A DNA stretch of 64,000 nucleotides from a virus (Duplodnaviria; Caudoviricetes): IMG/VR virus record IMGVR_UViG_3300046170_000323, one strand, 5' to 3'. Under the pieces are notes generated by a model that was not told where the DNA came from, searched no databases, and saw nothing but the letters and a program-made list of their open reading frames with translations. The position numbers and the translations under genes are program-made. Of the stretch, positions 4,082-10,180 are shown one piece after another (position 1 is the stretch's first letter; each line of letters opens with the position of its first letter).

Positions 4082-4322
4082 GGTGGGTACTATAAAGGTA
4101 GAGGATCTCTTCGAAGAAATCGAAGGTGATCCAGACAATGTCATTATGAAACTTCCACCTGTAATAATGGAATCTTTAGGGCTTGACATTGGTGATACTC
4201 TTGTGGTAGAATATGGCACAAATGGTTTGGTACTTCGAAAGAAAGAAGAACATCCCACTAAAGAATATGAAACTGCTCGGGGAAATCTAATAGATAAGAA
4301 CGTCCCACCAGAATTTGATTGA
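4065..4322 (+). CDS. AbrB/MazE/SpoVT-like DNA-binding protein
   Basis: VIMKLPPVIMESLGLDIGDTLVVEYGTNGLVLRKK fits the swapped-hairpin pattern (LP..I...LG...GD.L); GAGGA RBS before ATG 4065. Confidence 0.65.
   Translation: MVKPAEVGTIKVEDLFEEIEGDPDNVIMKLPPVIMESLGLDIGDTLVVEYGTNGLVLRKKEEHPTKEYETARGNLIDKNVPPEFD
4183..4212 (+). promoter_or_regulatory. Sigma70-type promoter P4 embedded in the AbrB-like CDS
   Basis: GGGC-TTGACA-18 nt-TAGAAT with extended TG; shares the GGCTTGACATT core with P1-P3. Confidence 0.5.
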
Positions 4323-5020: not shown

Positions 5021-5145
5021 AGGATTTGATTTATATCGTCGCTGGGGTGATAACAATAGGTTTGGTAGTTGCACTACTAATGCATATGTGGAGAGACTGT
5101 CTTAATGATCATTCAATATTTACTTGTATGAGGATGCTTCGTTAA
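5017..5145 (+). CDS. Small membrane protein (42 aa)
   Basis: MKDLIYIVAGVITIGLVVALLMHMW...; overlaps both neighbours at their stop/start codons. Confidence 0.55.
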   Translation: MKDLIYIVAGVITIGLVVALLMHMWRDCLNDHSIFTCMRMLR

Positions 5146-5756
5146 TGTTCACCAATTACCATGTAGTTGGGTTACAACGATCTGGTACGAATTGGATACA
5201 CAGATTGATGGAACACAACTTTCCAGATATTCCATGTTACTCAAATCAGGCTCATTGGAAACATCTCACACCATTGGGTATCAATCCAGATTGGGTTGAA
5301 AACAGGCATGGTAAAGAACAGAAAGCGTTTGGATATTTTCCAGGCGCATTTGATCTTCAGAACCTAGAACTTGAAAATCAATCAATTCTGTTTATTGGAA
5401 CACACAAAACGTTGGATGTTTGGAAGGCGTCAATCCGTAGACGGAAAGTTGATTTTATTCAAACTCACAACCACCCAGACAAAGGAGCTGCAAAACATTT
5501 AATGGAAGCATCTTTAAACTGCGTCTGGAATTCTTGGGAAAGTTGGAGACAGGACTCAATGAGTAAACCTAATTTCTATTACAGGGATTACCAAGACTGG
5601 TTCGAAAACTGGAATATATATCTGAGAGATATTCAGAACATCACTGGATGGAAACCATCAACTGCAAAATGGGAAAACGTTGATAAACATACTGTTCCAT
5701 TTTCAAAACAATTTAACCCTAATTTTTATGTAAAAGGAGACAAAAATGTCGTTTGA
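5145..5756 (+). CDS. Sulfotransferase-like (PAPS-binding P-loop) protein
   Basis: N-terminal HVVGLQRSGTNW matches the 5'-PSB loop (xxRSGT); GAGGA RBS before ATG 5145. Confidence 0.6.
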   Translation: MFTNYHVVGLQRSGTNWIHRLMEHNFPDIPCYSNQAHWKHLTPLGINPDWVENRHGKEQKAFGYFPGAFDLQNLELENQSILFIGTHKTLDVWKASIRRRKVDFIQTHNHPDKGAAKHLMEASLNCVWNSWESWRQDSMSKPNFYYRDYQDWFENWNIYLRDIQNITGWKPSTAKWENVDKHTVPFSKQFNPNFYVKGDKNVV

Positions 5757-6006
5757 ATGGCCTCGAATTTATAAATGGGAAGAACGCATCGAATCAGAAG
5801 TTACTGATACGGTTTATGAATATGTGTTCGAACATTATGGTGTTTCAGAGATCACCGAAATTTCCGAAGAACAGATCCGTGAAATTGAAAACTTCCGTGA
5901 TCATGATCTGGGAGAATACTCACCATTCCAAATTGGATTCAGTAATCTAATCAACTCTCACGAATCTGAAATGTGGGAAATGGAAGAGCGTGAAGACGAT
6001 GAGTGA
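5746..6006 (+). CDS. Hypothetical acidic protein
   Basis: 86-aa ORF, AAGGAG RBS. Confidence 0.7.
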   Translation: MSFEWPRIYKWEERIESEVTDTVYEYVFEHYGVSEITEISEEQIREIENFRDHDLGEYSPFQIGFSNLINSHESEMWEMEEREDDE

Positions 6007-6247
6007 TGAACAAGACTTCGATAGTGCTGAGGCAGAAGTCATGTCTTTCATCGAACGTCTCGAACGTTTAGATGAACAGTTACTTGATCTTCGTGGGGAT
6101 GTAAAATCTGTATGCGAAGAAGCAAAGGCACGAGGATACGAACCTAAGATCCTCAAAAAAATTGTATCACTAAGGAAACGTGATGCAGATGACATCGCCA
6201 ATGAAGAGGCGTTGTTGGAAACATATATGAAAGCAATAGGAATGTAA
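5999..6247 (+). CDS. gapR: GapR/DUF2312 (UPF0335) nucleoid-associated DNA-binding protein
   Basis: SFIERLERLDEQ...DVKSVCEEAKARGYEPKILKKIVSLRKRD...EEALLETYMKAIGM matches the GapR consensus (IERIERLEEE...AK..G.D.K..R..I..RK......E...L..Y..ALGM). Confidence 0.9.
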   Translation: MSDEQDFDSAEAEVMSFIERLERLDEQLLDLRGDVKSVCEEAKARGYEPKILKKIVSLRKRDADDIANEEALLETYMKAIGM

Positions 6248-6946: not shown

Positions 6947-7125
6947 TGCATATCGTTAGAAAAAAATCTGGTGAAATTATTGCAATCGCATCACGATACG
7001 AAGATGCTATTGCAATTGCAGATGGAACACGAATTGATAAAACCGAATACGTAGTTCAAGAGTCAACCGACCAACAAGAACTCGCAGAAGTCTATCGATC
7101 TTATTATGGAACGAGATCACTATGA
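6946..7125 (+). CDS. Hypothetical protein
   Basis: Start reassigned to ATG 6946 (MHIVRKKSGEII...) through TAATG coupling. Confidence 0.65.
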   Translation: MHIVRKKSGEIIAIASRYEDAIAIADGTRIDKTEYVVQESTDQQELAEVYRSYYGTRSL

Positions 7126-7328
7126 CCGATGATGAAGTACGTGCATCCGCTCAGAAAGAAGCGGAGAAAACATTTGAAGGTTTTATATTATGGTCTAAAA
7201 GAACTACCTATGCCTCAATCGCATTCTTATTGATTGTGGCATCGTGTAACTTTGGGGTAGAGGACGACACCTATCCTGCCTATAACGGCGAACAATATAA
7301 TCCGTCCAATCTTAATGTAAAGAAATAA
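7122..7328 (+). CDS. ctaH: aa3-type cytochrome c oxidase subunit IV-like peptide (COX4_pro_2 family)
   Basis: QKEAEKTFEGFILWSKRTTYASIAFLLIVASCN parallels the Rhodobacter/Paracoccus subunit IV pattern (Q)EKTFxGF followed by one TM helix ending near N. Confidence 0.65.
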   Translation: MTDDEVRASAQKEAEKTFEGFILWSKRTTYASIAFLLIVASCNFGVEDDTYPAYNGEQYNPSNLNVKK

Positions 7329-7342
7329 AGATAGGAAACAAA

Positions 7343-7771
7343 ATGAAAAATCTAATTACTGCTAGTCTTATGGCACTTTTCGCAACATCAGCATACGCTG
7401 AAGATATGACTATTGAAATGTTGAATAAACGTGACGATGGTGCAAAGATGGTATACAGTGAAGATATCGCACTTATTGACGTAGGTGATACAATCACGTG
7501 GGTTCCAACTTCAAAAGGACACAATGTAGAATTCATTGCTGGCCCAGATGGATGGGATGCACCAAAGAAATCAAAACTTAATAAAGAAGTGGCAATTACA
7601 TTTGACACGCCAGGCGTTTATCTGTATCAGTGTACACCACACAAGTCAATGGGTATGATTGCCATTGTAGTTGTAGGTGAGTTGACACAAGAAGGTGTTG
7701 ATGCAATTAAAGGTGCCAAAGTAAAAGGCAAATCAAAGAAGAAATTCAAGGGGTTGTTGGCTGATCTATAA
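7343..7771 (+). CDS. paz: Pseudoazurin (type 1 blue copper protein)
   Basis: Sec signal peptide; IEMLNK...MVYSED...VGDTITWVPTSKGHNV; all four Cu ligands present (H in GHNV; C, H and final M in YQCTPHKSMGM); Lys-rich C-terminal helices. Confidence 0.93.
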   Translation: MKNLITASLMALFATSAYAEDMTIEMLNKRDDGAKMVYSEDIALIDVGDTITWVPTSKGHNVEFIAGPDGWDAPKKSKLNKEVAITFDTPGVYLYQCTPHKSMGMIAIVVVGELTQEGVDAIKGAKVKGKSKKKFKGLLADL

Positions 7772-8172
7772 TGAAAAGTTTAGTTGATAAAATACCAGAA
7801 TTTTGTATGAGCCATTGGTTACTTCGTATTCCATTGGCCATCGTATTCCTTCAACAGGGCCTTGATAAATGGCCCGTTGATGCCGCAACTGCAGAGTCTT
7901 TTGCACTCCCATTGATTGTTTGGGTCTTTGTTGTTTACGGTGAACTTGGTTCGGGTGTTGGATTACTTGTTGGTGGAATACTCGCCAACTGGTTCAAAGA
8001 GTTTGGTGATTTGATTACACGATTTAGTGGTATTACAATTTGTAGTATTATGACAGGTGTTATCTGGATCGGCGAACCTGAGAGTTTTATGGATGTAATC
8101 CTGTACGATAACTTCCACGTTCTCTTGTGGGTTGGTGGAATGTTTTTTGCACTGAGAGGTAATAGAACTTGA
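7771..8172 (+). CDS. DoxX family membrane protein
   Basis: LLRIPLAIVFLQQGLDK...GELGSGVGLLVG...TRFSG; about 4 TM helices; TAATG-coupled to pseudoazurin. Confidence 0.8.
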   Translation: MKSLVDKIPEFCMSHWLLRIPLAIVFLQQGLDKWPVDAATAESFALPLIVWVFVVYGELGSGVGLLVGGILANWFKEFGDLITRFSGITICSIMTGVIWIGEPESFMDVILYDNFHVLLWVGGMFFALRGNRT

Positions 8173-8755: not shown

Positions 8756-8774
8756 CAAGTCTGGTAGTAAAGTG

Positions 8775-8800
8775 GGGCGGTTATATCCGCCCTTCTTTTT
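8775..8800 (+). terminator. Rho-independent terminator for the plus-strand cassette
   Basis: GGGCGG-TTATAT-CCGCCC-TTCTTTTT. Confidence 0.75.
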
Positions 8801-8807
8801 ATTTGGA

Positions 8808-10136
8808 TCAGAACAAGTTGCTGATGCGAACTCTTCTGTAGTACTGGTTGGTGTTCTGTGTAAGAGCACCCTGTGTTGCAGCAGCAGTACCGTCTGCGAA
8901 TGGGTTCGATACCATACCGTAACGAGTTTTGAACCCGATTTTTGGCTGGAATGAGTTCTCACCCACGGCACGAACCATCTGTAGTGGTACGTATGGGCAG
9001 TAGAACAGACCTGCATCGAATGCAGATGAACCTTTGTATCCAACAACCATGTAGTTTGAACCAGCATATGGATCAATGTACACTCTGTAACGTCCGTTAA
9101 GAACACCAGCGAATGTGTTACCAGTTGTGTCAACTTCCAGTGAGTTGCTGTTAAGAGCAGGAGTGTAATCAAGTACACCTGCCATCTGCAGAGCAGATGC
9201 AACGTCTGAAGAACAGATCACAATGTTACCTTTACCTCTGCGTGTAGCAGTTGCAATTGCGTTTGCTTCCTGTTCGATCTGGAACATCAGACCTTTGAAC
9301 TTCTCAACTGACCAACGTCCGTTTGCGTCAACGTCAAGATCGAAGATACCAGCAGCAGCAGTTGCCGCAGCACCTGCAACAGCAGTACCGTAGATTGTAC
9401 GTACAACTTCACGGTTGATCTCAGTCAGAATTTCTGACTGCAAGATGTTCGCAAGTTCTGTCTCTGCGTCGAGACCGTGAACTGCTTTAAGATCCTGTGC
9501 GAGTTCAGTGGTGTATTCCGCTTTCAACGCACGTGTTTTCGCAGCGACTGTTACTTTCTCGATTGAGAACGCCATCTCTGCAAAGTTGGTTCCGCCACCG
9601 TCACCCAATGCTTCACCAGCGGCAGTGGTCATACCAGTACCAGTGTCAAAGATTGAAGTGTTAGGAACTGCACCACCAGTTGAACCGGCTTCTGCACCTG
9701 CACCTGCGAAGGTAGTGTCTGATTCACCGTGGAATACCTCAGTACCTGACTGAGATGTCTCACGTGAACGCATTGCGAAGATCAGACCAGTTGGGCCTGT
9801 CATTGGCTGTACACCAGCAATGTCATATGCAATCAAGTTTGGCATAGAACGTCTGATCAAAGATACAAGTACTGGATCGTAACCTGCTCCTGGCCCTGCG
9901 TCTGTTGCCGCACCTGTAAATCCGCCATCAGTACCTACATCGTTTGCAGGCGCTTCTGAAAGAAGTGCAGTCATGTTTGCTGAAGCGTCACCCTCTTGGC
10001 GCAGAGCTGACTCTGTGTTTTCAAGGATGGTTGCAGTTACACTTTTACGGTGCTGATCTGCAATTGGTGAAAAAGATTCGTGCTCAAGGATTGGGCCCCA
10101 CTTTTCCACAAGTTTTTGATAGTTTGACTGTGTCAT
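8808..10136 (-). CDS. gp23: Major capsid protein
   Basis: LVEKWGPIL, YDPVLVSLIRRSMPNLIAYDIAGVQPMTGPTGLIFAMR, RALKAEYTTELAQDLKAVHGLDAE, YCPYVPLQM, GFKTRYG. Confidence 0.99.
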   Translation of the reverse strand: MTQSNYQKLVEKWGPILEHESFSPIADQHRKSVTATILENTESALRQEGDASANMTALLSEAPANDVGTDGGFTGAATDAGPGAGYDPVLVSLIRRSMPNLIAYDIAGVQPMTGPTGLIFAMRSRETSQSGTEVFHGESDTTFAGAGAEAGSTGGAVPNTSIFDTGTGMTTAAGEALGDGGGTNFAEMAFSIEKVTVAAKTRALKAEYTTELAQDLKAVHGLDAETELANILQSEILTEINREVVRTIYGTAVAGAAATAAAGIFDLDVDANGRWSVEKFKGLMFQIEQEANAIATATRRGKGNIVICSSDVASALQMAGVLDYTPALNSNSLEVDTTGNTFAGVLNGRYRVYIDPYAGSNYMVVGYKGSSAFDAGLFYCPYVPLQMVRAVGENSFQPKIGFKTRYGMVSNPFADGTAAATQGALTQNTNQYYRRVRISNLF

Positions 10137-10172: not shown

Positions 10173-10180
10173 TATTTATA
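10173..10180 (-). promoter_or_regulatory. T4-type late promoter
   Basis: TATAAATA between gp22 and gp23. Confidence 0.85.

Follow-up and report, generated by a model that had tools for sequence, protein, structure and literature searches.

The window analysed here, i.e., the whole stretch of 64,000 nucleotides of a tailed virus (class Caudoviricetes; IMG/VR record IMGVR_UViG_3300046170_000323), carries on its plus strand, at 7343..7771, an open reading frame (ORF) which, judged from its sequence and predicted fold, is the gene of a pseudoazurin precursor with a complete type 1 copper site. The gene is viral, and together with two small neighbours, one encoding a CoxIV-like peptide and the other a DoxX-like membrane protein, it behaves as an accessory cassette gained or lost among close phage relatives. 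With moderate confidence, it is proposed that the gene product would be a functional periplasmic pseudoazurin and the gene an early-expressed respiratory auxiliary metabolic gene of a marine T4-like myovirus, feeding the aa3-type cytochrome c oxidase of an alphaproteobacterial host. The linked three-gene cassette, absent from the initial annotation of this stretch, points to such a respiratory partner as far as sequence can tell.

Identity of the phage pseudoazurin

The ORF encodes 142 residues plus a stop codon, its ATG being preceded by AGGA at 7333-7336. It matches the Pfam family PF00127 (Copper-bind) with an E-value of 1.5e-15 and 57.8 bits (cut-off 21.2), and its 22 best matches among the sequences of solved structures are pseudoazurins (E 1.8e-26 to 2.1e-19), headed by 1bqk (E 1.8e-26) and 3tu6 (E 3.5e-26), with alignments running from residue 20/21 to residue 140/141 and including the C-terminal helices. 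Amicyanins and plastocyanins, matching at E 5e-12 and weaker, are covered over the beta-sandwich only, the plastocyanins as far as about residue 111. Pseudoazurins are told apart from plastocyanins and amicyanins by two C-terminal helices. The AlphaFold model derived from a 52-sequence alignment, with a mean predicted local distance difference test (pLDDT) score of 91, exhibits eight strands followed by two such helices (residues 116-123 and 130-141), and Foldseek comparison of this model with the PDB returned pseudoazurins at ranks 1-27 (TM-target 0.83-0.90, root-mean-square deviation 1.5-2.3 Å), plastocyanins appearing from rank 28.

The type 1 copper ligands correspond to His60 (7520-7522), Cys97 (7631-7633), His100 (7640-7642) and Met105 (7655-7657), the last three in the arrangement Cys-x2-His-x4-Met; they align to the copper ligands of 1bqk and are invariant in an alignment of 52 relatives, namely 31 viral and 21 cellular ones. 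A predicted signal peptide spans residues 1-19 (7343-7399), which gives a mature protein of residues 20-142. By inspection, the N-terminus displays the layout of n-, h- and c-regions, with an MKN start, a hydrophobic core and A-Y-A before Glu20; crystallised pseudoazurins, in their mature form, begin to align at phage residue 20/21, and the signal-like N-terminus is kept across the 52 relatives. Both the intact precursor with its signal peptide and the four copper ligands described in the initial annotation are thus borne out at the level of sequence, and the phage pseudoazurin would be exported to the periplasm via Sec. The description of the protein as Lys-rich stands by count, 16 of the 123 mature residues being Lys; the net charge, however, is near neutral (isoelectric point, pI, of 6.15). 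Four of these residues, i.e., Lys29, Lys58, Lys76 and Lys78, are conserved in the 52 relatives and align with Lys10, Lys38, Lys57 and Lys59 of classical pseudoazurins, residues that form the ring by which those proteins dock to their partners.

Among phage copies, the ratio of nonsynonymous to synonymous substitution rates (dN/dS) of the pseudoazurin gene has a pairwise median of 0.14 at a dS of about 1.2 (31 viral copies, 398 pairs), a sign of purifying selection which supports the earlier suggestion that the protein is functional. Near-identical phages differ in the linker that leads to the last helix (residues ~113-125, 7679-7717), of which there are two versions, giving proteins of 142 and 138 residues; identity between the two versions is 93-97% up to residue 113 and falls after it, which suggests recombination within the gene.

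Viral nature of the locus

The pseudoazurin gene is situated 1 kb away from gp23, the gene for the T4-type major capsid protein (8808..10136, minus strand), which was assigned by Pfam (Gp23) and phage homology and is preceded by a late motif at 10173-10180. Its product is 65% identical to those of Sinorhizobium phages phiM12 and phiN3, 63% to that of the OM43 phage Melnitz and about 60% to those of cyanomyoviruses. Genes of the Pfam families T4_CASP, Peptidase_S77 and Portal_T4, i.e., scaffold, prohead protease and portal, adjoin gp23, and from 8.8 kb onward the window consists of a T4-type structural module on the minus strand. Along with ten copies of the late-promoter motif TATAAATA, these elements confirm the initial reading of the DNA as that of a T4-like phage.

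The exact pseudoazurin, with identical CoxIV-like, DoxX and gp23 neighbours, recurs in six assemblies, each independent and from a sample of its own. The G+C content of the gene (38.9%) resembles that of the surrounding phage block (39.5%) and of the window (41.4%), unlike the nearest cellular loci (~50%). Because the synteny is identical in the six assemblies and the G+C content is at phage level, unlike that of cellular loci, a recent chimeric join is excluded so far as assemblies can show. A join with host DNA, which had been named beforehand as the finding that would overturn the annotation, is further contradicted by the 336 IMG/VR contigs encoding a relative of the protein. A scan of the window for tRNA genes returned none.

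A three-gene cassette

Upstream of the pseudoazurin gene, a plus-strand gene (7122..7328) encodes a CoxIV-like peptide of 68 residues with a single predicted transmembrane helix, matching PF07835 (COX4_pro_2) over residues 14-40 with 25.9 bits against a cut-off of 22. Its start overlaps the stop of the gene before it (ATGA), and 14 nt separate its end from the pseudoazurin ATG. The peptide has an EKTF-x-GF motif; the T-F-x-G-F motif and the transmembrane helix after it are conserved in 14 phage copies, and a profile of these copies compared with 177,635 PDB sequences gave aa3 oxidase subunit IV chains as its top three matches, with weak E-values of 0.12-0.34. The C-terminal part (residues 38-68) contains an invariant Cys42 that comes after the transmembrane helix and whose surroundings (V-A-S-C or V-V-G-C) resemble a lipobox, and then a conserved acidic and aromatic tail of about 27 residues, predicted periplasmic, with a pI of 4.3; as such, the peptide could be the precursor of a lipoprotein or else an oxidase subunit with a tail. 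The N-terminal motif H-K-H-G-E/S-M is missing. Given the extra tail and the missing motif, it is a putative aa3 oxidase subunit IV only, which as such would assemble between subunits I and III.

Downstream, the ATG of a gene for a DoxX-family membrane protein of 133 residues (7771..8172, plus strand; PF07681, 28.5 bits against a cut-off of 23.6) overlaps the pseudoazurin stop codon (TAATG). Its AlphaFold model (pLDDT 87) consists of four long helices, for which Foldseek found nothing in the PDB at E <= 0.001, with spurious helical bundles only; Glu58 and Thr83-Arg84, which are motifs of the family, do not vary. Helix 1 opens with P-E-F-C-x-[ST]-H-W (DoxX-like residues 9-16, window 7795-7818), a motif seen in 20 of 20 aligned phage proteins and in none of five cellular relatives, which may constitute a Cys/His metal or redox site. 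Joint fold prediction of the DoxX-like protein, the CoxIV-like peptide and the mature pseudoazurin scored 0.01 against a mark of 0.32 and is used neither for nor against binding.

The linkage count covers 47 non-identical viral loci in which the pseudoazurin gene is flanked on both sides by 2 kb or more, partners being counted within 2 kb. The full trio occurs in 27 loci; eight others have the CoxIV-like gene as the sole partner, six the DoxX-like gene, and in the last six pseudoazurin stands alone, so that the CoxIV-like gene is linked to pseudoazurin in 35/47 loci and the DoxX-like gene in 33/47. The trio is found in four gene orders, i.e., with C, P and D for the CoxIV-like, pseudoazurin and DoxX-like genes, C-P-D, P-D-C, C-D-P and D-P-C. 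Within 5 kb of cellular pseudoazurins, neither partner was present in any of 80 loci. Purifying selection applies to the partners too, with dN/dS of 0.21 and 0.12.

Direct joints were observed in contigs from seawater RNA libraries. One form joins 7094 to 8153, so that exactly the three cassette genes are gone (1058 bp), with flanks of 195 and 315 nt at ~98% identity; the other joins 7329 to 8154 and has lost pseudoazurin and DoxX (824 bp). Close phage relatives therefore differ in the presence of the cassette, which is accessory. It also appears to be a mosaic of different sources because its nearest cellular relatives sit in unlike genomes: the nearest cellular DoxX (59% identity) lies at a locus of 29% G+C in a 1.4-Mb genome, unlike the Rhodobacteraceae that harbour the nearest pseudoazurins. 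Phage-type DoxX was not found in the five closest Rhodobacteraceae genomes with a single-protein query, which is no proof of its absence there.

In a related phage (a 150-kb NCBI contig, L188, 3830-5500; also L189), the cassette is followed by genes for a DUF6356 protein, a ferritin (PF00210), a CHAP peptidase and an acyl carrier protein, and this adjacency of an iron-storage gene to an iron-free electron carrier is suggestive. In another phage lineage (L008-L011, e.g., L008 1488-7709), the order pseudoazurin-DoxX-CoxIV-like occurs near genes for a DUF1127/YjiS-like protein, a class I/II aminotransferase of 400 residues and a DUF454/YbaN protein.

Distribution and evolution

A word-indexed search returned 7022 related proteins, the closest of which (78-99% identity) are often encoded on contigs of 210-220 kb. 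From the nearest IMG/VR record, 119 kb long with an estimated completeness of 56%, a genome size of about 210 kb follows; other carriers (the records of L125, L130, L170 and L139), of 68-91 kb and judged 19-27% complete, imply genomes of 300-360 kb, and one pseudoazurin-carrying contig (L013) measures 322 kb. No gp23 match was found in the carrier fragments of 68-91 kb. As carriers include phages of ~210 kb and of ~300-360 kb, the pseudoazurin gene is not limited to one phage lineage.

A maximum-likelihood tree was computed from 122 non-identical sequences. In it, 45 viral rows, including one from a bin later recognised as mis-binned phage contigs, lie on one side of a branch with a support of 79. 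Grouped with the viral rows, at a value of 91 in the Shimodaira-Hasegawa-like approximate likelihood-ratio test (SH-aLRT), are the proteins of marine Rhodobacteraceae (Ascidiaceihabitans, Planktomarina), of Hellea and of some Rhodospirillales, and those of SAR11, SAR116 and OCS116/PS1 are more distant. The nearest cellular pseudoazurins are those of Rhodobacteraceae (65-69% identity), those of other marine Alphaproteobacteria reaching 47-60%. The Ascidiaceihabitans gene is chromosomal, located beside genes for a TRAP transporter, malonyl-CoA decarboxylase and a bactofilin; it (L175 8001-8435) has a G+C content of 43.5% against 49.6% for its locus, and a phage-type integrase gene is situated 2.3 kb downstream.

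Respective to described phages, tblastn searches (E 1e-3) of 50,697 GenBank phage records, cyanophages included, gave no match for pseudoazurin, and those with the CoxIV-like and DoxX-like proteins gave none in the same records. In PHROGs, pseudoazurin weakly matched plastocyanin PetE (phrog_515, E 3.2e-07) and the CoxIV-like and DoxX-like proteins matched nothing. No paper was found in the literature on a phage pseudoazurin or on this cassette, the search for cupredoxin viral auxiliary genes leading to papers on nitrifier viruses only.

Host and likely electron partner

A gene for a GapR-like DNA-binding protein (5990-6247; PF10073, E 2.8e-24; phrog_4212) is found in the plus-strand block that contains the cassette. 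GapR is a nucleoid protein of Alphaproteobacteria. The CoxIV family PF07835, searched for in 14 control genomes, matched Caulobacter alone. This family range, the GapR-like gene and the gene tree suggest an alphaproteobacterial host. A host link was also offered by the bin "Rhodobacteraceae bacterium Water_Bin34," whose pseudoazurin falls inside the viral clade, and was rejected, as at least seven different T4-type gp23 genes occur there on separate contigs; the bin consists largely of mis-binned phage contigs and is unfit for host assignment. The flanks of its pseudoazurin contig (L028), with methyl-, glycosyl- and sulfotransferase genes, are undecisive for the host.

Regarding the enzymes that could receive electrons, the copper nitrite reductase NirK was above its family cut-off in none of the five closest Rhodobacteraceae genomes nor did it exceed that cut-off in any of 48 other marine genomes encoding related pseudoazurins, and matches to the cd1-type enzyme in the five closest were short weak fragments only. 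Four of these five genomes have a single heme-copper oxidase subunit I. CoxIV of family PF07835 is likewise present in four of the five, in versions of 44-46 residues with a T-F-x-[GN]-F motif and a helix. The lack of a NirK above the cut-off, the single oxidase subunit I, the CoxIV of the near genomes and the CoxIV-like gene linked to pseudoazurin in the phage are the reasons for which electrons are proposed to pass from the bc1 complex, through pseudoazurin, to aa3 oxidase.

Transcription signals

The cassette is part of a tightly packed block of small plus-strand genes (~1.7-8.7 kb). Over the window, a scan for sigma-70-type promoters gave a total at chance level (20 found, 22 expected), while sites with at least 11 of 12 matches numbered 12 against 2.55 in shuffled sequences; after this shuffle test, the near-perfect sites alone were used. 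The nearest upstream of the cassette is a candidate early promoter at 4183..4212 on the plus strand (TTGACA, an 18-nt spacer and TAGAAT), and further near-consensus sites at 1819, 2132 and 2791, on the same strand, bring to four the promoters that head the block. The block is closed by a hairpin followed by a T-run resembling an intrinsic terminator (8774..8793, plus strand), which a minus-strand terminator 3' of gp23 (8756-8735) faces.

The motif TATAAATA, of late-promoter type, occurs ten times in the window against 2.3 expected, always on the minus strand (1690, 10173, 11223, 11955, 15868, 17284, 21903, 35887, 42128 and 59395), mostly directly 5' of structural genes, several of them head genes; on the plus strand of the window, including the small-gene block, none was found. 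From the sigma-70-like promoters and the confinement of late motifs to the minus strand, we infer that the cassette would be transcribed early. Variants of the pseudoazurin gene turn up on contigs of four seawater metatranscriptome studies, with DNA carry-over being possible; these contigs were read as presence alone, uncovered stretches and differences in depth being left uninterpreted, and are compatible with expression while constituting no proof of it. Elsewhere in the window, a 210-residue ORF (5124-5756) has weak, sub-threshold sulfotransferase matches (PF00685, PF13469).

Proposed role and alternative explanations

In the mechanism proposed, host RNA polymerase would transcribe the gene early as part of the tightly packed plus-strand operon, as the promoter motifs indicate, and the precursor would be exported by Sec and cleaved after Ala19, the position suggested by alignment with mature pseudoazurins. 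The mature cupredoxin, having presumably taken up one copper, would then work in the periplasm as a one-electron carrier between the cytochrome bc1 complex, as donor, and the host aa3-type cytochrome c oxidase, whereby respiration and the proton-motive force would be sustained or boosted during the shutdown of host gene expression. Such a carrier would come at no cost in iron, which is scarce in seawater. The CoxIV-like peptide and the DoxX-like membrane protein would probably be accessory to the same respiratory function. Between the two roles put forward in the initial annotation, i.e., electron carriage and copper sequestration, the conservation of the partner-docking lysines favours electron carriage.

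Several points weigh against this proposal. To our knowledge, pseudoazurin has been shown to donate electrons to the nitrite, nitric oxide and nitrous oxide reductases and to cytochrome c peroxidase, not to aa3 oxidase. In Paracoccus, it is described as an anaerobic carrier of denitrification, classical pseudoazurins feeding the three reductases under anoxia (PMC12848317). The link to Rhodobacteraceae depends on a gene tree of moderate support (the SH-aLRT value given above), and transfer may have run from phage to cell, in view of the low G+C content of the Ascidiaceihabitans gene and the integrase near it. The genomes searched for NirK and for oxidase subunit I (COX1) are incomplete single-amplified and metagenome-assembled genomes, and the assignment of the CoxIV-like peptide depends on a match of 27 residues. 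Finally, because six of the 47 viral loci carry pseudoazurin alone, the protein can act without its partners.

The textbook role of pseudoazurin (PMC12848317) underlies the alternative in which the phage protein would feed denitrification enzymes, i.e., NirK, the cd1-type nitrite reductase NirS, nitric oxide reductase (NOR) or nitrous oxide reductase (NosZ), of a low-oxygen host and thereby maintain anaerobic respiration during infection. It is in line with the conservation, in the phage protein, of the lysines that dock nitrite reductase in classical pseudoazurins, and with the location of a SAR11 pseudoazurin between nirK and cbb3 oxidase genes in the Benguela upwelling (PMC12816887). The 53 marine genomes with related pseudoazurins nonetheless lack a NirK above the cut-off, the cd1-like matches in the closest ones are short and weak, and the gene linked in the phage resembles a subunit of aa3 oxidase rather than a denitrification component; beside 94 viral loci, no denitrification gene was seen, NosZ and NOR not having been searched for. 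Denitrification is on balance an improbable destination of the electrons. Another possibility takes the cassette as a self-contained, phage-built and iron-free electron path bypassing bc1 and cytochrome c and switched in and out as a unit: the DoxX-like protein would take electrons from quinol and pass them to pseudoazurin, which the CoxIV-like peptide, inserted in the host aa3 oxidase, would dock by its acidic tail. DoxD/DoxX relatives are quinone-linked oxidoreductase subunits, a fact counted in its favour, as is the linkage of the three genes through at least four rearrangements in phages, never seen in the cells searched, with purifying selection on all three (dN/dS 0.12-0.21). The DoxX-like loops predicted to be periplasmic by the positive-inside rule are acidic and, like the CoxIV-like tail of low pI, would complement the pseudoazurin lysines. 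Against it, the DoxX-like protein has no known or predicted redox cofactor, 14 of the 47 loci have one partner only and six have none, and the nearest cellular DoxX belongs to a kind of genome unlike those of the nearest pseudoazurins, which indicates a mosaic cassette. A complete path of this kind is accordingly considered unlikely.

That pseudoazurin handles copper rather than electrons, either as a periplasmic buffer or chaperone against toxicity or as a supplier of copper to the oxidase, would fit with a protein that, from its sequence, binds copper by design, with neighbouring proteins having conserved Cys or Cys/His motifs and with the hint of a metal theme given by the ferritin gene after the cassette in the related phage. 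A buried type 1 site, however, holds one copper per 13-kDa protein and is a poor site for exchange, and strong purifying selection has preserved the full electron-transfer architecture, i.e., docking lysines and C-terminal helices. Moreover, the known copper chaperones CopC, PCuAC and CusF use other folds or sites. The copper sequestration offered as the second reading in the initial annotation is therefore very unlikely. Least credible of all, to the point of being nearly discounted, is a neutral passenger from a recent capture of host DNA or an artefact of assembly: the gene does lie in a variable small-gene block, and close phage relatives lack it (the joints 7094-8153 and 7329-8154), but the six independent assemblies with identical synteny, the hundreds of diverged viral copies forming one tree group, the dN/dS of 0.14, a G+C content ameliorated to phage level and stop and start codons coupled with those of the neighbours all speak against it.

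Significance

Auxiliary electron-transport genes of cyanophages, namely those for plastocyanin, ferredoxin and PTOX serving photosynthesis, are well known. By analogy, the phage pseudoazurin gene probably keeps host respiration running during infection, as cyanophage plastocyanin does for photosynthesis. If so, a phage copper carrier for respiration would extend the cyanophage principle to the heterotrophs that respire most of the organic carbon in the ocean, and viruses could by this route change how infected cells respire, how much copper and iron they require and how much energy they obtain. What appears new, on the sequence evidence, is an electron-carrier auxiliary gene from another cupredoxin subfamily, probably serving respiration and placed within a phage-specific three-gene module. 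The cassette is abundant (hundreds of IMG/VR contigs, thousands of metagenomic proteins) and has no match in the GenBank phage genomes searched. The proposal raises the question of whether pseudoazurin can donate electrons to aa3 oxidase, and the natural variants of the phage with and without the cassette constitute a ready comparison.

Comparison with known systems

The phage CoxIV-like peptide and subunit IV of the aa3 oxidases of Paracoccus and Rhodobacter (PF07835; 1qle chain D, 7ate chain D) have in common a T-F-x-G-F motif followed by one transmembrane helix; the phage peptide differs in lacking H-K-H-G-E/S-M and in its extra tail of ~27 residues starting from the invariant Cys. With bacterial pseudoazurins, such as those of Achromobacter cycloclastes (1bqk/1zia), Sinorhizobium meliloti (3tu6), Paracoccus pantotrophus (1adw) and Alcaligenes faecalis (1paz), the phage protein shares 37-44% identity over the full mature length, along with the eight-strand fold and two C-terminal helices (here predicted), the copper site, the Cys-x2-His-x4-Met loop and, as predicted for the phage protein, a Sec signal peptide. 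Unlike them, it is encoded by a virus and has Gln at the position of Lys77 in the classical docking ring. Its last helix also has a G-K-S-K-K-K motif that the marine clade conserves, in contrast to classical pseudoazurins, and the organisms of the nearest relatives lack, above the cut-off, NirK, i.e., the classical partner. The pseudoazurins of marine Rhodobacteraceae, SAR11, SAR116 and OCS116/PS1 resemble the phage protein in length and in conserved motifs; in contrast to the phage copies, the genes of these marine cellular proteins stand alone among housekeeping genes, and in the tree the viral copies are grouped apart from them.

As for cyanophage plastocyanin PetE, orthology with the phage pseudoazurin was not found, the evidence being a weak PHROG match, no tblastn match and a structure and sequence of pseudoazurin type. 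Both are nonetheless small type 1 copper carriers of marine T4-like myoviruses, export being predicted for the phage pseudoazurin, and both are apparently host-derived and under purifying selection, and both are presumed to keep host electron transport going during infection. The phage pseudoazurin differs from PetE in belonging to the subfamily with C-terminal helices, in travelling with a CoxIV-like peptide and a DoxX protein, and in its heterotrophic, probably alphaproteobacterial host, where it would serve the respiratory rather than the photosynthetic chain.

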